Shown: one piece after another, positions 3,357 to 20,813 of the stretch | Position numbering within the stretch: position 1 is the stretch's first letter | How the letters are laid out: each line of letters begins with the position of its first letter | Assembly (NCBI GenBank): GCA_945869825.1 | Contig: CAMBQF010000001.1 | Span: forward strand, 18,372 to 82,371 | DNA: 64,000 nucleotides | Reading direction: 5' to 3' | Origin: Chitinophaga pinensis | GTDB lineage: Bacteria > Bacteroidota > Bacteroidia > CAMBQF01 | Position numbers and translations under genes: made by a program | Notes under the pieces: generated by a model | The model's input: only the letters and a program-made list of their open reading frames with translations | Told to the model about the DNA's origin: nothing | Databases searched by the model: none

Positions 3357-6291
3357 ATTTAAAGCCTATTTGTCCGCGCTGGCGGTAATATTCGGTGCGT
3401 ATGGGCCTTTCTTTTTGTCCACGGTAGGTTAAGTCAGGCCAATCAAGCAGATTCATTAACTCAACATATACTGTGTAATGCTTTTTAAAAGTGTACGAAC
3501 CTCCAAAATCAAGAGAATACATAGGGCCTTTAAAAATATCGAAATCGCTATTGTTGTGTATGTATATCAAGTTGCCATTAAGGTCTTTTACAGTAGCCAG
3601 GTTAAGGTCTTTTAAATAAGCACCGGTATAGTTAAATGCTATGCGGGCCTGTAGGTGGTCGTTTTCATAAAACAAAGCCACATTATACAAAAACGGGGTT
3701 TGCTCTGTCATAGCCTGTTTGTTGCTGCGCCCCGGTGCCTGCATACGCGATAAAGAATAGGTTAGATTAGCATTTAAGCCAAATCCACTTAATATGCCAG
3801 GCAAACCAGTAAATTTCCGCACAAATGCCCCTTCAAAACCATACACGAATGATTGATTTGCATTATCGTAACGTTTGGCTACAATACCAATTTGATCAAC
3901 ATACGATGTAGTGATGGCAAATATATGGTTTACAACATATTTATAGTAGCCCCCAACAGAAAACATGCCCTTGTTGCCCCAAAAATACTCATACGTTAAA
4001 TCAAAGTTGTATGAATAGGCCGGCTTAAGCCTGGAGTTTCCATAAGTAAGGTCAAGGTCGTCTATACAATAAGCGCCGGAGCCGGGTTTGGTTTCGGCAA
4101 AATTGGGCCTGTGCATGGTGCGAGAAAATGCACTGCGCAGGTTCATCTTGTCATTAATAGTCCATGTTGCGTTTATTGATGGAAGCACAGACAGGTATTT
4201 AAGGCTGGTGCGGCGTTGTTCAGGCACGTAGTAATAATTGCCTGTGGGCTGGTCAAATGCCAGTGAATCTAAAAGGGTGTCTGAAAGTTCTTGCAGATTG
4301 GTATATTCAAGGCGGGCGCCTGCTACCAGCTGTATCTTACCCAGCTTAACATCGGCCATGCCATAACCGGCATATACCCCTTCGGTATACGTATAGCGGT
4401 TGCCTGCCCAAAACCTGTATTCTGTATTTACAGGGTTCATTTCGTATGGCTTTAGTGTGTCGCCAAGGTTAGGCACAAAATTCAATAATTGGTCTTGGGG
4501 CAAAAACGGGAAAAAGCTGCCTGCATAAGGGCTGCCCAGCTCTCTTAAAAAGCCACCCCGCTCGTCTAATTGTACTGTATTAAAATCGGTAAGCAGGTAA
4601 GGTTGTGGTCGCAGTGGCACGTTTTGCCTCCACTCGTATAAACTTACAAGCCTGGCACCCTCTTTATAGCGGCCTTTAAAACCAAATTGTAGTTTTACAT
4701 CGTTATTTATAACATAATTAAGGTCTACCCGGGCAACAACAGGGTCTCGTTCCCAGGTATCGTTCAACTCTGACCATGAACGGTAAAACTCAAAATCGCC
4801 AGGCTGCAAAGGGTCTGTGCTTTGTGGGTTTATGGGTTGGGGTTGTATGTTGTTATAATCATCACCAGTACCATAGGGATTATCTACCCCTAATAATTTT
4901 GTAACAATTGGCGCAACAGTATTTGGCCCCACAGGGTCGCCATTAAATTCTACAGAATCAACATCTTTATAATACAACAGCGGGCTCATAAACTCTGTAA
5001 AAAAGTACCCGTTTCGGGGGTCTTTATTTTTAAACGGGCGGTTGCCATACCTAAAGCTGTTATGGTACGTAGCCACTTTGGCTGTTACGGTAATTTTGTC
5101 ATTGATTTTAAATTCGCCGTGTACATCGCCACCAAAAAGCTGGCGTATTAACATACCGCTTATGCTTTGCAGCCTTAACCTTGCGCCCGACCCATCGCTA
5201 TAATTAAAACGGGTTTTATATTGGTTTTTATCATCGCTTAAGCGGCCATAAAAAAAGCGGCCACCAATGGTTACTTTGTCGTTAGGCTTATACTCAAATG
5301 CTGCATTGGCACCAATGGTATTGCGCATACCCGAGTAGTCTTTAAGTTCGTAACTGGCAATGCCCTGGTTAAAATTGCTGGCATAAACTACCTTGTATGC
5401 CTGTGCCCCGTAGTAGCGCCCGTAGTACGAACCATCAAGCACATAAGAGAATTTTTTGTTTTTAGATACGTTGCCATACGTAACAGCTGCATTCATTAAA
5501 GGCTTTCCGGCCAGGGTGTTATAACCGCCCCCTATGTTTACTTTAAATGTCTTCTTCTCAACATTAGAGCGGGTTAAAAAATTAATAATCCCGCCAATAT
5601 TATCCGACTCCTGGTCGGGTGTTACTGTGCGCGCAACAACAATATAATCAATAAAATCAGAGGGTAACACTTCAAAATCAAAAGCACGGCTGGCATTTTC
5701 TTCGTCAGATGTTGGCAGCCTGTCGCCGTTTACCAATGTCGCTGTCCAATCTATAGGCGTACCCCTTAATGATACCAGGCTTCCCTCGCCTTTGTCGTTT
5801 TGTACAGATGTTCCTGCAATCCGTTTTACAGCTTCGGCGGCTGTTTTAGAGGGCAATTTAGCTATAGCCTCTGACGACATTACTGATACAACATGCGAAG
5901 ATGTTTTAACCATATTGATGGCCTTATCTTCGCTGCCAATTTTGTAGCTACCCGTTACCGATACTTCTTTTAGCGTTTTAGCATCGGGTTCTAGTTCAAT
6001 GTCGTGCAACTGGGTTGTTGTACCAGCTGTAATAACCACCTCTTTTTGCAAAGGTTTAAAGCCAAGGTAGGTTACTTTTATTATTTGCTTGCCTACAGGT
6101 ATATTGAATAATTGAAATGTACCATCAAAAGCTGTTGTAGTACCTAGCTTTGTAGCTTCAATTATTACTATAGCGCCCGGCAACGATTCTCCTTTACTAA
6201 TCAGCCTGCCAGATAGCGTGCCAGTTTGTGCAGACAATACAACAATACAAAAAGAAAATAGAAATAATATAGTGTACTTAACTTTCGCCAC
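3346..6291 (-). CDS. TonB-dependent outer-membrane receptor (carboxypeptidase-regulatory-like N-domain + plug + beta-barrel)
   Basis: 981 aa, signal peptide, N-terminal CarbopepD_reg-like (SGRLISKGESLPGAIV), plug-like region, C-terminal aromatic terminus (KFDF). Confidence 0.8.
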   Translation of the reverse strand: MAKVKYTILFLFSFCIVVLSAQTGTLSGRLISKGESLPGAIVIIEATKLGTTTAFDGTFQLFNIPVGKQIIKVTYLGFKPLQKEVVITAGTTTQLHDIELEPDAKTLKEVSVTGSYKIGSEDKAINMVKTSSHVVSVMSSEAIAKLPSKTAAEAVKRIAGTSVQNDKGEGSLVSLRGTPIDWTATLVNGDRLPTSDEENASRAFDFEVLPSDFIDYIVVARTVTPDQESDNIGGIINFLTRSNVEKKTFKVNIGGGYNTLAGKPLMNAAVTYGNVSKNKKFSYVLDGSYYGRYYGAQAYKVVYASNFNQGIASYELKDYSGMRNTIGANAAFEYKPNDKVTIGGRFFYGRLSDDKNQYKTRFNYSDGSGARLRLQSISGMLIRQLFGGDVHGEFKINDKITVTAKVATYHNSFRYGNRPFKNKDPRNGYFFTEFMSPLLYYKDVDSVEFNGDPVGPNTVAPIVTKLLGVDNPYGTGDDYNNIQPQPINPQSTDPLQPGDFEFYRSWSELNDTWERDPVVARVDLNYVINNDVKLQFGFKGRYKEGARLVSLYEWRQNVPLRPQPYLLTDFNTVQLDERGGFLRELGSPYAGSFFPFLPQDQLLNFVPNLGDTLKPYEMNPVNTEYRFWAGNRYTYTEGVYAGYGMADVKLGKIQLVAGARLEYTNLQELSDTLLDSLAFDQPTGNYYYVPEQRRTSLKYLSVLPSINATWTINDKMNLRSAFSRTMHRPNFAETKPGSGAYCIDDLDLTYGNSRLKPAYSYNFDLTYEYFWGNKGMFSVGGYYKYVVNHIFAITTSYVDQIGIVAKRYDNANQSFVYGFEGAFVRKFTGLPGILSGFGLNANLTYSLSRMQAPGRSNKQAMTEQTPFLYNVALFYENDHLQARIAFNYTGAYLKDLNLATVKDLNGNLIYIHNNSDFDIFKGPMYSLDFGGSYTFKKHYTVYVELMNLLDWPDLTYRGQKERPIRTEYYRQRGQIGFKFDF

Positions 6292-11808: not shown

Positions 11809-13659
11809 TTGCACCAATTTGACAGAAAACCCGCTATGAATGCTATGTATAAGCCAAAATTTAATAAATTAGCACAAGAAAATGCCCGGGACCGTTTGAT
11901 GATTGAATACAATGAGGTGATTGATAAACTGCCTCCACATTTAAAGCAGTTTATTGTGGATCAGGATTATAGCCACTATACGCCAATTGACCAGGCGGTA
12001 TGGCGATATGTTATGCGCCAAAATTACTGCTACCTAAGCAAGGTTGCCCACGGCAGCTATGTAGAGGGCCTTCAAAAAACAGGTATTGGTATCGACCACA
12101 TCTCTCAAATGTATGGCATGAACCGCATTCTAAAAGAGATTGGTTGGGCGGCTGTTGCGGTTGACGGGTTTATTCCCCCATCGGCATTTATGGAATTTCA
12201 GGCGTATAAAATTTTGGTAATAGCGGCCGACATAAGGCAGCTGGAACATATACAATACACCCCGGCGCCTGATATTATTCACGAAGCAGCAGGCCATGCC
12301 CCCATTATTGCCGACCCTGAATATGCTGAGTACCTGCGCCTGTTTGGCGAGATTGGCAGCAAGGCATTTTCATCGGCCCAGGATTATGATTTGTACGAGG
12401 CAGTCAGGCATCTTTCTATTATAAAAGAATTCCCTAATGCTACAGCAGAAGAGATTGCTGAGGCTGAACAACGGTTGGAACAGGTATCGGCCAATATGGG
12501 CGAGCCCAGCGAAATGGCGCGTATACGCAACCTGCACTGGTGGACTGTTGAGTATGGTTTGATAGGCAAGCCCGAAGATTGTAAAATTTATGGTGCAGGC
12601 TTATTATCATCTATTGGCGAGAGTGTAAGCTGTATGCAACCCGATGTGAAGAAGATACCTTACACCATAGCAGCAGCAGATACCAGCTTTGATATTACCA
12701 AGCAACAACCCCAATTGTTTGTTACCCCATCGTTTAAACAACTGGTAGAGGTGCTGGAAGATTTTGCTGAAAGCCTTGCCCTGCGCCGTGGTGGTTTGTA
12801 TGGGCTGGAAGTGGCTATAAAATCGAAGAATGTAGGCACGGCAGTATATAGCTCGGGCTTGCAGGTGAGCGGGGTATTTGACGAAGCGATTACCGATAAA
12901 AACAACAACCTGATTTATATACATACCACAGGGCCTACATCATTAGCCTATAAAAATAAAGAGCTTGACGGGCATGGTAAAGTTTACCATGCAGAGGGTT
13001 TTGGGTCGCCGGTAGGAAAGCTAAAAGGCACCAACAAGCCTCTGGAACAACTTACCGAAGTAGAACTGGTGATGATGGGGATTGTAAACGGTTTGCCCTG
13101 CCACCTTGAGTTTGAAAGTGGTGTTGTAGTAGATGGTGTTTTGAGGGAAAAGGAGCAGGTATCGGGCGGAAAAAGCCTGATTTTTGTGTTTGATGATTGC
13201 ACCGTAACTTATGGCGACCGACTTTTGTACGACCCTGACTGGGGCACGTATGATATGGCTGTGGGCGAGAGTATAGTGTCTGTATTTAGTGGTGCTGCAG
13301 ATGTTGAGGCATACAAGCCTACATCGAGGGTGCCGCACGAGTTGACCAAGAAAATTGTATACACCCCTGAACAATTGCGCTTGCAAAAATTATATGGCCA
13401 AGTGCGGGAGATACGCGATACCAAAGGCGACTACAACGCATTGCCAGGAGTATTCAGCATATTAAAAACTGATTTTACCAATGACTGGCTGCTGTGTGTA
13501 GAGTTGTATGAGATATTGAAGGACAGCAACCTATACCCCAACCAAACAGCAGAAATAAAGGCTTATTTAGAGGAGATGAAAACCCGTAAGCCAGAATATA
13601 AAAAGCTTATTGAAGACGGTATACGTCTTACTGATGAGCTTGAACTTACCCACTCGTAA
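11809..13659 (+). CDS. biopterin-dependent aromatic amino acid hydroxylase family protein (phenylalanine-4-monooxygenase-like) with ~270-aa C-terminal extension
   Basis: YTPAPDIIHEAAGHAPIIADPEYAEY and YGAGLLSSIGE match the iron-binding motifs of PAH/TH/TPH catalytic domains (PEPDxxHELLGHVPLL...FGAGLLSS); total 616 aa is about twice a bacterial PhhA. Confidence 0.6.
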   Translation: MHQFDRKPAMNAMYKPKFNKLAQENARDRLMIEYNEVIDKLPPHLKQFIVDQDYSHYTPIDQAVWRYVMRQNYCYLSKVAHGSYVEGLQKTGIGIDHISQMYGMNRILKEIGWAAVAVDGFIPPSAFMEFQAYKILVIAADIRQLEHIQYTPAPDIIHEAAGHAPIIADPEYAEYLRLFGEIGSKAFSSAQDYDLYEAVRHLSIIKEFPNATAEEIAEAEQRLEQVSANMGEPSEMARIRNLHWWTVEYGLIGKPEDCKIYGAGLLSSIGESVSCMQPDVKKIPYTIAAADTSFDITKQQPQLFVTPSFKQLVEVLEDFAESLALRRGGLYGLEVAIKSKNVGTAVYSSGLQVSGVFDEAITDKNNNLIYIHTTGPTSLAYKNKELDGHGKVYHAEGFGSPVGKLKGTNKPLEQLTEVELVMMGIVNGLPCHLEFESGVVVDGVLREKEQVSGGKSLIFVFDDCTVTYGDRLLYDPDWGTYDMAVGESIVSVFSGAADVEAYKPTSRVPHELTKKIVYTPEQLRLQKLYGQVREIRDTKGDYNALPGVFSILKTDFTNDWLLCVELYEILKDSNLYPNQTAEIKAYLEEMKTRKPEYKKLIEDGIRLTDELELTHS

Positions 13660-14456: not shown

Positions 14457-15098
14457 CTATTTCTTATCAGTTTCGGCCTGCTCCTTTTTCAACTTATCAA
14501 TATCGTTGATAAGGGTGGCTATTTCGGTATCTGATGTACCATCGTAATACCCTCGGATGTGGTGGAATTTATCTACCAAAACAAACATTTGGGTATGGAT
14601 AAAATCGTCTTCAATTTTCTGGGTAATGGTGGTATCGGTGCTAAGTAAATAGCTTTCGCGGGCCATATCGTATAAGGCACGTTTATCGCCGGTTAAAAAG
14701 TACCATTGTGTGTTATCGGCATTGTGGCGTTTGGCATACTCCATTAACGCAGGTACTGAGTCTTCCTCAGGCTTAACGGTATGCGACAGGATTTTAAAGC
14801 CTTTATCCCCTTTTATTTTATCTGATACCTTCATCATGTTTTTATTCATAATAGGGCATATAGACTTGCAGGTGGTAAAGAAATATTCAACCACATAGTT
14901 GGTACCCTCTACGCTTTTATCGGTAATGGTATCGCCCAGCTGGTTAACAAACTTAAATGGCTTTACCGAGTGGAATAAGGTATCGCCACGGGTGGTTAAT
15001 TCTTTATCGCCATAAATAGGCAAATAACGTACTTCCTTTTTGTTGGGGGTGCAGGCTGCAAATAATACCACAACAAAAGCAAAAAATAATACTCTCAT
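14457..15098 (-). CDS. SCO1/SenC family copper chaperone
   Basis: Lipoprotein signal, thioredoxin-like CxxxC (CKSICP) and downstream His typical of SCO family. Confidence 0.7.
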   Translation of the reverse strand: MRVLFFAFVVVLFAACTPNKKEVRYLPIYGDKELTTRGDTLFHSVKPFKFVNQLGDTITDKSVEGTNYVVEYFFTTCKSICPIMNKNMMKVSDKIKGDKGFKILSHTVKPEEDSVPALMEYAKRHNADNTQWYFLTGDKRALYDMARESYLLSTDTTITQKIEDDFIHTQMFVLVDKFHHIRGYYDGTSDTEIATLINDIDKLKKEQAETDKK

Positions 15099-15100
15099 TA

Positions 15101-15397
15101 TTACTTAATAAAATCAGTTGGTTTTTTTACAAACTCTTCTTTACAGCCGGTGCCGCAAAAACCATATAGTTTGCCTTTGTAGCTTGCTGTATCTGCAACG
15201 CCTGATGTTATATCCATTTCGCAAACAGGGTCAATTTTAGAGGCTAGTAAAGCCATATCAACAGCCAGTTTACCATCTTCTTTAGGCATAGGTGGTTTTT
15301 GCCCTTCAATTTTTTGGTTTTCGCCTGCTTTAGGCTCTGTTTTTTGGCCGCAGCTTACTATGATAAAACAGGCGGCTATAAATGCTAATGCTTTCAT
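15101..15397 (-). CDS. YHS-domain (TRASH) metal-binding lipoprotein
   Basis: Lipoprotein signal (VSCGQ); C-terminal YGFCGTGCKEEF YHS-domain motif; 3-nt gap to SCO1 gene. Confidence 0.6.
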   Translation of the reverse strand: MKALAFIAACFIIVSCGQKTEPKAGENQKIEGQKPPMPKEDGKLAVDMALLASKIDPVCEMDITSGVADTASYKGKLYGFCGTGCKEEFVKKPTDFIK

Positions 15398-15530
15398 GAA
15401 AAATAATTATGGTGCAAAGGTACTCTATAACTCTATAGCTATCAAAAAAAACAGGTAGCCTCTACATTCAATTTTTTCACTTTTTAGTTTTTCACTTTTA
15501 GTTTTCGCATACCTTTGCGTCAACTTTAAT

Positions 15531-15610
15531 ACAGGGGTGTCCGCCGTTTGGCGAACTGAGAGAGTCCCTTTGAACCTGATCAGGTTAGTACCTGCGATAG
15601 GGAGTATTAG
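15531..15610 (+). promoter_or_regulatory. TPP (thiamine pyrophosphate) riboswitch, THI element
   Basis: ACAGGGGTGTCC...CTGAGAGAGTCCCTTTGAACCTGATCAGGTTAGTACCTGCGATAGGGAG matches THI-box consensus (GGGGUGC...CUGAGA...ACCUGAUCUGGAUAAUGCCAGCGUAGGGA); lies directly 5' of TonB-dependent receptor gene. Confidence 0.85.
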
Positions 15611-15696
15611 GAAGCGCTTACGCACATTCTGTGCGTGTAGTCCTTAGTCCGTATACTACGGATATTCCTGTATTAAGGCAACAAATACAGGCTATC

Positions 15697-17877
15697 ATGA
15701 AAAATCAATTCAAAATTCAGAATGCAAAATGCATAATTGTGCTTGCAATGGCTATTTCAAACTTTGCTATTGCGCAAACGCCGATGAGTAAAACAATCAG
15801 CGACTCGGTAATAGTAGCGGCTACGCGTACCGATGGTAAACAGGGTGTGGCCTATACCCAGGTGAGTAAAGAGGATTTGAAGAAGCAAAACCTTGGGCAG
15901 GATATTCCGGTATTGCTAAACCTAACCCCATCGGTGGTGGTAAGCTCTGATGCAGGTAATGGCGTTGGCTACACAGGCATACGCATACGCGGCAGCGATG
16001 CTACCCGTATAAATGTTACCGTAAATGGTATACCTATGAACGATGCCGAAAGCCATGGTTTGTTTTGGGTTAACATGCCCGATCTTGCATCATCAGTAAA
16101 CTCTATACAAATACAACGCGGGGCGGGCACCTCTACCAATGGGGCGGGGGCTTTTGGTGCCAGTATAAACATACAAAGCAATGTGCTGAATGCAGAACCG
16201 TATGCAGAGGTTAACTCATCGGCCGGGTCGTTCAACACGTTTAAAAATACGGTAATGGTGGGCTCGGGACTTGTTGGTGGCAAATTTACTTTTGATGCAA
16301 GGCTTTCTAAAATAACATCAGACGGGTTTGTAGACCGTGCCGCATCAGACTTAAAATCATTCTTTGTATCAGGAGGATATTATGGCACAAAGACGATTAT
16401 AAGGGCTAATGTGTTTTCGGGCAAAGAACGTACGTACCAGTCGTGGTATGGCATACCCGAAGCGGCGTTGGATACCAACCGCACCTACAACTACTACACC
16501 TATGCCAACCAAACCGATAACTACCAGCAAGACCATTACCAGCTTATTGGCTCGCACAGTATGAACAACAACTGGAACCTCAACCTGGCGCTGCACTATA
16601 CCCGGGGCAAAGGCTATTATGAAGAGTACAGAGGGCAGGATGATTTTGCCAACTACGGCTTGCCCAATTTTCAACTTTCGCAAGATACCATTCCGCCTAT
16701 AACTGTAAGCACAACAGACCTTGTGCGCCAACGCTGGTTAGATAACCATTTTTACGGGCTTACCTACTCTGTAAACTACAAAAGCTACAACCGCTTAAGC
16801 TTTATTTTAGGCGGGGGAGCAAACCAATACCGTGGAGCCCATTATGGCAATATTATCTGGATGCAATATGCCGGCAGCATTCCTAAAGATTACCGTTATT
16901 ATGATAACGATGCAGTTAAAACTGACATTAATGTATATGGCAAAGCCAACTACCATTTTGGCGCGGGCATTAATGCTTTTATCGATTTACAATACCGCCA
17001 CGTAGGCTACTCATTTTTAGGGTTTGATAATAACCTGCAAAATGTGCAGCAAGATGTAAACCTTAACTTTTTTAATCCTAAGGCAGGCATTAACGTGGAG
17101 CTGCCAAGCGATCAGCAGTTATACCTATCAGCAAGCGTAGCGCACCGCGAACCCACGCGCGATGATTTTACCCAAAGCACACCTGCCAGCAGGCCTAAGG
17201 CAGAGCGGATGATAGATACCGAACTGGGTTATAAAAAGCATTGGAAAAACACTATGGTTGGAGCAAACGGTTATTTTATGTATTACCAAAACCAGCTGGT
17301 ATTAACAGGGAGAATTAATGATGTTGGCGCATATATACGCAGCAACATAGACCAAAGCTACCGCGCTGGTATAGAGCTGGAGGGAGCTGTAAACATTGGC
17401 AAAAAAGTGAAGCTTGCAGGTAACTTTACCTTTAGTCAGAACAAGGTGATAGACTTTGCCGAATATATTGACGATTACGACAATGGTGGGCAGGTGGTTA
17501 ACCGTTACAAAAGTACCGATATATCATTCTCGCCAAACATGGTGGGGGCGGCAACCCTTAGCTACGAGCCTGTAAAAAAGCTTGTATTTAGTTTGATTAA
17601 TAAATATGTTAGTCGCCAATACCTTGATAATACGAGCAACAAGGCACGGTCATTAAACCCTTATACCACGCAAGACTTACGCATAAATTACAACTTTAGC
17701 GCAGGTTCAGCAAAAGACATTTCGCTAATATTATCAGTAAACAACCTGCTGAATGCTAAATATGAGCCTAATGGCTATACGTTTAGCTATATATATGGAG
17801 GGCAACAAACCACAGAAAACTACTACTACCCGCAAGCGGGCATAAACGTAATGGGTGGCATAGGCGTAAGGTTTTAG
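15697..17877 (+). CDS. TonB-dependent outer-membrane receptor (riboswitch-controlled; probable thiamine/precursor uptake)
   Basis: Preferred start MKNQFKIQNAKCIIVLAMAISNFAIAQ (signal peptide); plug-like N-terminal region, beta-barrel, C-terminal GIGVRF. Confidence 0.8.
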   Translation: MKNQFKIQNAKCIIVLAMAISNFAIAQTPMSKTISDSVIVAATRTDGKQGVAYTQVSKEDLKKQNLGQDIPVLLNLTPSVVVSSDAGNGVGYTGIRIRGSDATRINVTVNGIPMNDAESHGLFWVNMPDLASSVNSIQIQRGAGTSTNGAGAFGASINIQSNVLNAEPYAEVNSSAGSFNTFKNTVMVGSGLVGGKFTFDARLSKITSDGFVDRAASDLKSFFVSGGYYGTKTIIRANVFSGKERTYQSWYGIPEAALDTNRTYNYYTYANQTDNYQQDHYQLIGSHSMNNNWNLNLALHYTRGKGYYEEYRGQDDFANYGLPNFQLSQDTIPPITVSTTDLVRQRWLDNHFYGLTYSVNYKSYNRLSFILGGGANQYRGAHYGNIIWMQYAGSIPKDYRYYDNDAVKTDINVYGKANYHFGAGINAFIDLQYRHVGYSFLGFDNNLQNVQQDVNLNFFNPKAGINVELPSDQQLYLSASVAHREPTRDDFTQSTPASRPKAERMIDTELGYKKHWKNTMVGANGYFMYYQNQLVLTGRINDVGAYIRSNIDQSYRAGIELEGAVNIGKKVKLAGNFTFSQNKVIDFAEYIDDYDNGGQVVNRYKSTDISFSPNMVGAATLSYEPVKKLVFSLINKYVSRQYLDNTSNKARSLNPYTTQDLRINYNFSAGSAKDISLILSVNNLLNAKYEPNGYTFSYIYGGQQTTENYYYPQAGINVMGGIGVRF

Positions 17878-18573: not shown

Positions 18574-18963
18574 ATGAAGCACATAATATTTTCGTTGCTG
18601 GTAATAGCGGCGGTAGCCCTGGGTGGATGCAGGTATGACAAAGCGGATGAACTATACGTGGCCACGCCATGCGACACTTCGGTTTCAATCACATTTTCAG
18701 CATATGTTACGGGTGTTGTAAACGATAATTGCATTAGTTGCCATAGCAACGCCAATAATGTGAGCCTTGGCGGCAGCATAAACCTTGAAGGTTATGATAA
18801 CCTGATAAACTACGTTAATGACGGCCCTGACGGCGGTAGCTTTATGGGTGCCATTACCCACAACCCTAACTACCTTGCTATGCCCCAAAACGAAGCCAAG
18901 TTGGATGACTGTACCATTTTAAAATTGCAGAAGTGGGTTAACAACGGCGCACAGAACAACTAA
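18574..18963 (+). CDS. small lipoprotein with single CXXCH heme-binding motif (putative c-type cytochrome-like)
   Basis: Lipoprotein signal LGGC; NDNCISCHSN motif. Confidence 0.4.
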   Translation: MKHIIFSLLVIAAVALGGCRYDKADELYVATPCDTSVSITFSAYVTGVVNDNCISCHSNANNVSLGGSINLEGYDNLINYVNDGPDGGSFMGAITHNPNYLAMPQNEAKLDDCTILKLQKWVNNGAQNN

Positions 18964-18967
18964 AACG

Positions 18968-19900
18968 ATGAAGAAGATTTTACTATCAATATTTACCGGC
19001 ATTGCCAGTGTTGCTATAGCCCAACCGCCTGCCGACACAACGAATAAAGCTGTTGATTTTGACTCGTTGTTAAACATGGTTGAAGATAGCCAGCCAAAGG
19101 AAAAGCCATTGGTAACAGCTACGTTCAAATCGTCAAGAATAATAAACGGACACTCTGTTGAGTTGGCAAAACCAAAGCATTTAGAGTTCCGTCTATCTCA
19201 CCGTTTTAGCAGCGTGCGCGATGGGCTGGATGGTTTTTTTGGCCTTGATAATGCCAGCACCCGTATAGCCTTGGAATATGGCATAAACGACTTTATGATG
19301 GTTGGCCTGGGTCGTAGTGGTGCCTATAGCAAATCTGTAGATGCATTTTACAAAGCCAAGGTGTTGCGCCAACGCGAAGGCGGTATGCCTATAACGCTTA
19401 CCTTGTTTGGATCGGCGGTGATAAGTACCATAAAAAATAATATCCCTGACTACCGTTTCGACTCGAGGCTAACCTATACCGTACAGGCTATAATTGCATC
19501 AAAAATAAGCGAGAAGCTATCGTTGCAACTATCGCCAACCCTGGTACACCGCAACCTGGTACCCACGGCAGTTTACCCTAACGATTTGATTGCTATTGGT
19601 GTTGGGGGCCGCTTAAAACTATCGCGCAGAATATCATTAAATGCTGAGTACTTTTACCGTGTATTATCATCAGACTACCGCAAGGTAGACCCATACCATA
19701 ACGCACTTGCTATAGGGTTTGATTTTGATACCGGCGGCCATATTTTCTCGCTGCACTTTACCAACTCGCGTCCGCAGATAGAGCCCGGCTTTATTGGCGA
19801 AACCAGCTACAACTGGCTTAAGGGCGACTTTAGCTTTGGCTTTAACATTACCCGCCAGTTTTATTTGGGTAAAAAGAGCAAAGCGCCGCAAGGCTGGTAG
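18968..19900 (+). CDS. outer-membrane beta-barrel protein (hypothetical), co-oriented 5 nt downstream of heme-motif lipoprotein
   Basis: Signal peptide MKKILLSIFTGIASVAIAQ; beta-strand periodicity. Confidence 0.45.
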   Translation: MKKILLSIFTGIASVAIAQPPADTTNKAVDFDSLLNMVEDSQPKEKPLVTATFKSSRIINGHSVELAKPKHLEFRLSHRFSSVRDGLDGFFGLDNASTRIALEYGINDFMMVGLGRSGAYSKSVDAFYKAKVLRQREGGMPITLTLFGSAVISTIKNNIPDYRFDSRLTYTVQAIIASKISEKLSLQLSPTLVHRNLVPTAVYPNDLIAIGVGGRLKLSRRISLNAEYFYRVLSSDYRKVDPYHNALAIGFDFDTGGHIFSLHFTNSRPQIEPGFIGETSYNWLKGDFSFGFNITRQFYLGKKSKAPQGW

Positions 19901-19946
19901 TTACCCCACCCCCTAAAGAGTAAAAATTTGTGTACCTTTAGGTACC

Positions 19947-20813
19947 ATGAAACAGCTCTTACTAATCCTTTTTGGCATTAGCGCATTGGGTGCTTTTGCG
20001 CAGCCCGATACTACAGAGATAAAGAAACTGAAGTACACCAACGTTAAGTTTTATTTAGGGCAGAAGAAGATATTAAAGAACGTACTATCGTACGATATGT
20101 GGTCCATTGGCAAGCTGGATATTTACCCGCCTGTTGCAGACAGCCTGGCTAATTTTTTATTACTGAGAAAGAACATAGTTATTGAGCTGGGCGGCCATAG
20201 CGATTGTGCTAATGCCAAAGAGCCGGGTACAAATGCTGCCAAAGCGGTTAAAGACTACCTGCTAACCAAAGGCGTGCCGGCCGACCGTATACAAACCCGT
20301 GGATATGGAAACGCACTACCTTTAGTAAAATGCCCAGGGGCGGGCGAACCTACAAGTGATACGTATGCAAACCGCCGTGTAGAGGCGCGTATTGTAAACT
20401 TTGTAAAGCCCAATTTTACCTATCAGGATAGCGTTTTGCATAGTGGGCAGGTGATGGTGTTGCGTGATATGCTTTCGTTATTAGTGACAAAAAACAGTTC
20501 GCGAACACACATATTGGAATCAAAGGCAGATACTCTGGCGGTTTTTTTAAATATCTATAAGGGTATTAAAATAGAGGTCGGGGTTCATACGAGTACCGAC
20601 GGGCCGGACGATGTAAACAAAAGGGTTTCTGAAGCAGATGCCAAACTAATTGCCGACTACCTTATTTCTAAAGGAGTTTCCTCAAATAGGGTTGTTCCCG
20701 TTGGCTATGGAGAATCTATGCCAATGGTGCCATGCCCTTCCGATATAAAATGCACCGAAGAACAGCACAATAAAAACCGCAGGGTAGAGTTTAAAATACT
20801 AAGTACTGAGTGA
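19947..20813 (+). CDS. OmpA-family protein with two OmpA-like (peptidoglycan-associating) domains
   Basis: Two copies of OmpA C-terminal signature (NRRVEARIV; NRRVEFKIL), signal peptide. Confidence 0.55.
   Translation: MKQLLLILFGISALGAFAQPDTTEIKKLKYTNVKFYLGQKKILKNVLSYDMWSIGKLDIYPPVADSLANFLLLRKNIVIELGGHSDCANAKEPGTNAAKAVKDYLLTKGVPADRIQTRGYGNALPLVKCPGAGEPTSDTYANRRVEARIVNFVKPNFTYQDSVLHSGQVMVLRDMLSLLVTKNSSRTHILESKADTLAVFLNIYKGIKIEVGVHTSTDGPDDVNKRVSEADAKLIADYLISKGVSSNRVVPVGYGESMPMVPCPSDIKCTEEQHNKNRRVEFKILSTE

Follow-up and report, generated by a model that had tools for sequence, protein, structure and literature searches.

The 64,000-nucleotide (nt) stretch of contig CAMBQF010000001.1 analyzed here (the window) carries a thiamine pyrophosphate (TPP) riboswitch directly upstream of a gene encoding a TonB-dependent receptor, and the leader of this gene is predicted to adopt two alternative folds, one of which masks the region around the start codon. 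We propose, with a probability of about 0.6, that the receptor gene is controlled at translation initiation by occlusion of its start region, through three elements of the leader: the 5′ strand of the aptamer, a switch strand in the linker, and a copy of the aptamer strand just before the start codon. The logic of this platform, as modeled, would be like that of the Escherichia coli thiM riboswitch, without a Shine-Dalgarno sequence.

A preliminary description of this DNA had recognized a THI element before the receptor gene, and the Rfam search agreed. The model RF00059 (TPP riboswitch) matched positions 15523–15620 of the forward strand with 66.0 bits (gathering score 54.3, E-value 9.9e-11) over its full length (model positions 1–105), and this was the sole Rfam match above gathering score in the 64-kb window. 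The motifs quoted earlier for the element, CTGAGA, ACCTGATC, GGTTAGTACC, and GCGATAGGGA, are seen both in the sequence and in the Rfam alignment. The segments that contact the ligand are all present as well, namely CUGAGA for the pyrimidine sensor and ACCUGAUC...GCG-AGGGA for the pyrophosphate sensor, the latter with one additional A (GCGaUAGGGA) that is common to all ten members of the clade defined below. Stem P1 is formed by UUUAAUAC and GUAUUAGG, and the optional stem P3a is missing from the alignment of the window aptamer. Within the clade the P3 arms vary yet pair (CGCC/GGCG, CCGG/CCGG, and GUUUCG/CGAGAC), as read off the alignment and the folds. In an Rfam re-check, RF00059 was above gathering score in all nine close relatives and in 10 further loci. 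Judged by its sequence, the RNA before the receptor gene is a genuine TPP riboswitch, for which TPP binding and repression are themselves predicted.

The clade consists of the window and nine contigs whose receptors are 74–98% identical to that of the window, and the ten leaders were aligned. The aptamer is nearly invariant among them; the next ~55 nt, which include the hairpin at 15620–15636, are highly divergent in sequence. Two linker elements are invariant or nearly so, UCCUGUAUU (15666–15674) and AUACAGG (15685–15691), the second of which always lies 0–5 nt before the ATG. In the window, the octamer AAUACAGG at 15684–15691 is an exact copy of the P1/P2 5′ strand of the aptamer (15528–15535), and its complement CCUGUAUU is found at 15667–15674. 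The copy occupies positions −13 to −6 and ends 5 nt before the AUG. The linker folds as two hairpins in all ten leaders despite their differing sequences (z = −4.3 in the window, range −0.5 to −4.5). Because the first of these hairpins (15612–15645) is formed in both folding states, is unconserved in sequence, and lies far from the ATG, we interpret it as a static spacer and not as the sequestor.

The two states were seen in silico in every leader of the clade. In the unconstrained minimum free energy (MFE) structure, the aptamer 5′ strand pairs with the switch strand in 10/10 leaders; in the window this helix joins 15524–15542 to 15660–15678 over 19 base pairs (bp) and leaves the start open. 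With P1 enforced, as a proxy for the TPP-bound state, CCUGUAUU pairs with AAUACAGG beside the AUG, a pre-start hairpin that was again found in all ten. The mean probability of being unpaired over positions −16 to −1 drops on P1 enforcement in each leader, and in the window it falls from 0.93 to 0.45. The duplex of the 5′ strand with the linker has an energy of −19.1 kcal/mol in the window, reached by none of 200 dinucleotide shuffles, and its z-scores range from −2.4 to −8.0 across the clade. When the growing transcript was folded, the aptamer was the MFE state for 3′ ends from 15612 to 15666, and the long-range helix prevailed at 15672–15678. At eight positions of the long-range helix, only one of the two paired bases varies, and the change is among standard pairs (G-U, A-U, and G-C). 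Moreover, the flanks of the switch strand (15660–15666 and 15675–15678), though variable among the relatives, retain their complementarity to the aptamer 5′ strand.

Bacteroidota tune translation initiation through the structure of the mRNA and not through Shine-Dalgarno sequences (PMC6847099), and no Shine-Dalgarno sequence was found upstream of 15697 in the window. In the mechanism that we propose, a −7-box promoter would place the start of the mRNA essentially where the aptamer begins, and the aptamer would control the single receptor gene. With TPP bound, P1 and P2 would hold the aptamer 5′ strand, and the switch strand would pair with the pre-start copy; the resulting hairpin would occlude the unstructured region needed by the ribosomes of Bacteroidota, which do without Shine-Dalgarno sequences, and turn the gene off. 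When TPP is missing, the switch strand, ~125 nt downstream of the 5′ strand, would invade the aptamer and form the 19-bp long-range helix, and the start region would be left single-stranded and the gene on. The hairpins at 15612–15645 and 15647–15663 would be static throughout, and would probably give the aptamer a delay of ~55 nt in which to sense TPP.

The E. coli thiM riboswitch, reportedly described by Winkler, Nahvi, and Breaker in 2002, is said to have a translational platform with an anti-Shine-Dalgarno and an anti-anti-Shine-Dalgarno element. The predicted platform of the window likewise has three elements, with one strand that has two exclusive partners, one in the TPP-locked aptamer and one at the ribosome-binding region. 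Unlike in thiM, what would be masked is the copy of the aptamer 5′ strand and not a Shine-Dalgarno sequence, the mRNA would begin with the competing aptamer strand, and the ligand-free helix (19 bp) joins strands that lie ~125 nt apart.

Several observations weigh against this reading. The ligand-free ensemble is 5–11 kcal/mol more stable than the P1-enforced one in the models, and TPP must therefore act kinetically or supply about that energy; the binding energy of TPP is of about this size. No compensatory double change was found in either alternative helix among the ten leaders, a consequence of the aptamer 5′ strand being the same throughout the clade. Pair counts over both helices gave 80% of cells paired vs 34–59% in slid controls, a comparison that is biased and inflated, the structure having been derived from the same sequences, and the column-shuffle control, which is uninformative with one side invariant, was not significant. 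Nor is the design general: when the linker segment that pairs best with the aptamer 5′ strand was blocked in silico in 60 distant loci of the receptor family, the start opened in only seven, and the extension of three-element start sequestration to these loci was rejected. As modeled, the three-element design is clade-specific. Finally, the aptamer lies 77 nt (from the end of the Rfam match) or 85 nt (from the end of P1) before the ATG, a distance of the class that Costliow et al. tie to transcript-level control.

This distance is also the main point in favor of control at the transcript level, in which TPP would cause premature termination (Rho-dependent or non-canonical) or mRNA decay within the 77-nt spacer, with occlusion of the start being secondary, or the trigger. 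Riboswitches of Bacteroides more than 40–50 nt from the start, including that of the B. uniformis transport operon, lower mRNA, and those abutting the start act on translation (bioRxiv 10.1101/867226). In E. coli thiC, translational repression is coupled to Rho termination. The aptamer of the window resembles the transcript-level TPP riboswitches of Bacteroides (those of thiS operons and of the B. uniformis transport operon) in lying more than 50 nt from the start. It differs from them in that its leader has no terminator-like hairpin with a U-run, and the conserved elements abut the start codon, where they do not form a terminator. Indeed, no such site was found on the forward strand in 15400–15800, and no U-tract follows any of the three leader hairpins in the ten relatives; an intrinsic terminator platform was rejected, as there is no candidate between the aptamer and the start codon. 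We regard control at the transcript level as less probable than occlusion of the start, to which Rho-dependent termination may nevertheless be coupled.

Another explanation is that the pre-start hairpin (15667–15691) forms constitutively, for example for mRNA stability or processing, that its likeness to the aptamer is a coincidence, and that the riboswitch acts otherwise. The missing double changes in the two helices would fit this, as would the fact that the three-element design is undetectable in most distant family members. It has to account, however, for an exact 8-mer identity within ~15 nt beside the AUG, which is expected in about 2 of 10,000 cases, and for the flanks of the switch strand, whose complementarity to the aptamer 5′ strand persists although they would lie outside the hairpin or in its loop. 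These points make a constitutive hairpin improbable. Far less probable still is the sequestering element of the preliminary description, the hairpin at ~15619–15636, which was thought to mask an in-frame ATG at 15631. The arms ACGCAC (15620–15625) and GTGCGT (15631–15636) are real, and a hairpin is found at the same site in all relatives; its loop is ATTCT (5 nt) and not ATTCTG (6 nt). The codon at 15631, however, is a GTG that is not conserved, the sequence of the hairpin is variable, and 61 nt separate the hairpin from the conserved ATG downstream. Moreover, it does not switch: it was folded alike in the ligand-free state and with P1 enforced, and it is 15667–15691, with the invariant start-occluding elements at 15667–15674 and 15684–15691, that changes. 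In seven of the nine close relatives an in-frame stop codon lies 4–11 codons (12–33 nt) upstream of the ATG, which rules out an N-terminal extension there and upholds the earlier choice of ATG 15697 as the real start. Start-region occlusion by the pre-start hairpin at 15667–15691 is the reading we retain. The features of the locus are listed in Table 1.

Table 1. Features of the riboswitch-receptor locus in window coordinates.
Feature	Coordinates	Strand	Basis and details
T-rich imperfect tandem repeat (TTTTTCACTTTTTAG / TTTTTCACTTTTAG / TTTT)	15473..15505	+	Tandem Repeats Finder: period 14–15, 2.3 copies, 94% matches
−7 promoter box TACCTTTG (TAnnTTTG, Bacteroidota type), predicted	15510..15517	+	Sequence; conservation of position
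TPP riboswitch aptamer (RF00059)	15523..15620	+	P1 15525–15532/15604–15611; P2 5′ strand 15533–15537; CUGAGA 15556–15561
Aptamer 5′ strand (P1, P2, start of P3), also partner of the switch strand in the ligand-free fold	15524..15542	+	MFE folds, duplex energy
Spacer hairpin 1, core ACGCACA/UGUGCGU (15620–15626/15630–15636)	15612..15645	+	Both folding states; hairpin at this site in 10/10 relatives
Spacer hairpin 2 (GUCCGUA-UAC-UACGGAU)	15647..15663	+	Two-hairpin linker in 10/10 relatives
Putative switch strand, invariant core CCUGUAUU (15667–15674)	15660..15678	+	Pairs with 15524–15542 or with 15684–15691
Pre-start copy AAUACAGG, 3′ arm of the putative sequestor hairpin	15684..15691	+	Conservation, change in accessibility
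TonB-dependent receptor gene (726 amino acids), the putative regulated gene	15697..17877	+	ATG 15697; Plug and beta-barrel domains; signal-peptide-like N-terminus MKNQFKIQNAKCIIVLAMAISNFAIAQ

The −7 motif that had been noted upstream of the aptamer was recovered. The consensus TAnnTTTG is too common on its own to be informative, and the evidence lies in its conserved position. It was found within 45 nt upstream of P2 in 53/62 independent homologous loci, vs 2.8% of random control windows, and it is retained in all ten members of the clade. The gap between the box and P2 is mostly 10–20 nt among the loci and 16 nt in the window. Given this conserved position, the transcript probably starts at ~15521–15525, at the foot of P1. 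The box is preceded by a T-rich tandem repeat, which the preliminary description had reported as a tandem duplication of 15 nt; the repeat is there and is inexact, with units of 15, 14, and 4 nt. It occupies roughly −20 to −50 of the promoter region. The TTAG that closes its first unit corresponds to TTTG in the 98% relative, and a −33-like element may be located here. Among the relatives, only the closest retain the repeat (L081, L082, L085, and partly L084); it has the opposite sense in L083 and is gone below ~80% identity. Its unit is not above chance elsewhere in the 64-kb window, and a role as a dispersed or functional element was rejected, the repeat being local and restricted to these nearest relatives.

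The receptor was assigned by Pfam to PF07715 (Plug, 3e-13) and PF00593 (TonB_dep_Rec_b-barrel, 4.7e-22); no specific NCBIfam model matched it in the NCBIfam search, and no PDB relative was found by sequence. Its 90% cluster includes a protein from the metagenome-assembled genome (MAG) of a "Sphingobacteriales bacterium", and the only public names in the cluster are "TonB-dependent receptor" and "iron complex outer membrane receptor" (also "iron complex outermembrane receptor protein"). Since the gene lies behind a TPP riboswitch, its substrate would be thiamine-related, and the reference to iron is probably a mistake of generic annotation. By analogy, the receptor most likely imports thiamine or a thiamine precursor, as the preliminary description had implied from the control of the receptor by the riboswitch, and this matches the studied case of OMthi (BT2390). 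A receptor publicly called an iron complex receptor would in this way be re-labeled as a probable importer of thiamine or a precursor in an uncultured Sphingobacteriales lineage.

The cobalamin riboswitch represses BtuB, the TonB-dependent receptor for that vitamin, and the arrangement in the window is like it in joining a vitamin-sensing RNA to the cognate outer-membrane receptor, with a different ligand, aptamer family, and receptor family. The pairing of a TPP riboswitch with a TonB-dependent receptor is itself well documented in Bacteroidota, and is ordinary here. Among the 97 TPP riboswitches associated with transport in 114 Bacteroidetes genomes, 85 lie before OMthi (bioRxiv 10.1101/867226). 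In B. thetaiotaomicron, OMthi has a part in the uptake of thiamine (PMC5613172); thiamine represses it at translation, and the TPP riboswitches before the thiamine transporters of this species act on translation (bioRxiv 10.1101/867226). The window shares with it a TPP riboswitch directly before a TonB-dependent receptor of ~730–740 amino acids, a likeness of architecture. In contrast to OMthi, where fewer than 5 nt separate the aptamer from the start codon, the leader of the window has a spacer of 77–85 nt with two hairpins and a separate putative sequestor. The OMthi operons of most gut Bacteroidetes, unlike the window, also hold pnuT and tnr3 (the operon is split in B. thetaiotaomicron itself), and neither gene was found downstream of the receptor in the window. 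Finally, the host of OMthi is a gut Bacteroides, whereas the window comes from an environmental Sphingobacteriales bacterium.

The linkage between riboswitch and receptor was followed in a scan of species-representative genomes, which gave 80 loci with receptor homologues 47–59% identical to the window protein, from Cytophagales, Sphingobacteriales, Chitinophagales, Flavobacteriales, Bacteroidales, and Balneolales, among others. An aptamer covariance model (R1) built from the leaders of 34 of these loci matched upstream, on the same strand, in 76/80, and the four loci without a match have almost no upstream sequence on their contigs. This count is partly circular, hence the re-check with Rfam, in which RF00059 was above gathering score in 26/37 loci, including all nine close relatives. 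Variants from Pedobacter and Mucilaginibacter with long insertions score below it. The members of the family in Bacteroidales (L039, L045, and L076) have 49–50% identity to the window protein. As far as these matches indicate, the receptor family is riboswitch-linked essentially throughout Bacteroidota.

Some of these loci have leaders of unusual composition. In L030, a Marivirga sp. MAG, two tandem TPP aptamers (2441–2535 and 2605–2701; 63.6 and 57.6 bits, both above the Rfam gathering score) precede the receptor homologue. In eight loci of Pedobacter, Mucilaginibacter, and Sphingobacteriaceae (L023, L024, L025, L027, L037, L038, L040, and L071), R1 gave either two adjacent weak matches or one long match at ~2470–2700, none at the Rfam gathering score; such matches could represent aptamers that carry large insertions, or else degenerate tandem copies, which standard annotation would overlook. 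In L034, a Flavo-1 RNA motif (RF01705, 53.4 bits) at 1405–1487 lies ~70 nt upstream of the TPP riboswitch at 1558–1654, on the same strand. Just downstream of the receptor gene of L006, a Cytophagales MAG, a group I intron (RF00028, 58.9 bits; 5220–5507, reverse strand) adjoins a tRNA match (5528–5600, reverse strand).

The linkers of the distant loci are of other kinds. Almost all of L001–L080 have a CCCCU-like box 30–55 nt before the ATG (for example, L033 285–338, L056 2681–2736, and L008 2686–2751). The box is complementary to the conserved AGGGG of P2 and often lies within a hairpin bordered by GGUUAAAC...GUUUAAACC; simple occlusion of the start codon does not account for its role. In three loci from Chitinophagales (L053, L070, and L074), the linker GUUCCCAAA is complementary to uuugggaac at +10 to +20 of the coding sequence (codons 4–7), which suggests a different sequestration design that would mask the early coding region. 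The three-element platform was also sought in two intermediate relatives, L090 and L091 (receptors P0030 and P0086, 58% and 60% identical). Both have an aptamer match upstream, and the leader that was read, that of L090, has a linker of the CCCCU type instead. We tentatively suggest, at slightly less than even odds, that the clade of the window uses a previously undescribed TPP expression platform, in which the copy of the aptamer 5′ strand at the start codon would compete with the aptamer for one switch strand across the two spacer hairpins, and that this platform belongs to a class of riboswitch outputs that is Shine-Dalgarno-independent and specific to Bacteroidota, and that includes the anti-P2 CCCCU box. 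If a true regulator, this box could define a phylum-specific mechanism of riboswitch output. The outputs of riboswitches are poorly understood in Bacteroidota, where Shine-Dalgarno sequences are not used, and the leader of the window offers a clean hypothesis that can be tested by mutagenesis.

Downstream of the receptor gene, the window encodes a hypothetical membrane protein, a small CxxCH lipoprotein, a DUF5777 barrel, and an OmpA-family protein, and no clear terminator was found after the receptor stop codon. In the relatives, these slots hold murB, an Omp85 gene, a flavodoxin-like gene, and others instead. Because the downstream neighbors differ among the relatives, the conserved regulated unit is, by this comparison, the receptor gene alone, and a conserved operon reaching the downstream genes was rejected; in the strain of the window itself these genes may be co-transcribed with the receptor gene. 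Two further candidates were rejected as coding, the GTG-extended open reading frame of the receptor and a reverse-strand open reading frame at 15425–15625 (66 amino acids), both of which overlap the riboswitch and are not conserved.

Other genes of the neighborhood were noted in passing. At 18574–20813 (forward strand), the CxxCH lipoprotein (129 amino acids, with a weak cytochrome c551 match below the cut-off), the DUF5777 beta-barrel protein, and the double OmpA-family protein form a cluster that is kept in the 98% relative and not in the others. Divergent from the receptor, at 14457–15397 (reverse strand), lie a SCO1/SenC gene and a YHS-domain gene, both of copper-handling types. This neighborhood is retained in L081, L082, L083, L085, and L088, sometimes with a GldM_1st-domain gene inserted between. 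Finally, 11809–13659 (forward strand) encodes a protein of 616 amino acids in which Pfam recognized nothing but part of a biopterin-dependent aromatic amino-acid hydroxylase domain; the best hydroxylase stretch covers residues 214–323, between long flanks that have no assignment, and in the relatives the gene lies beside an SDR gene.

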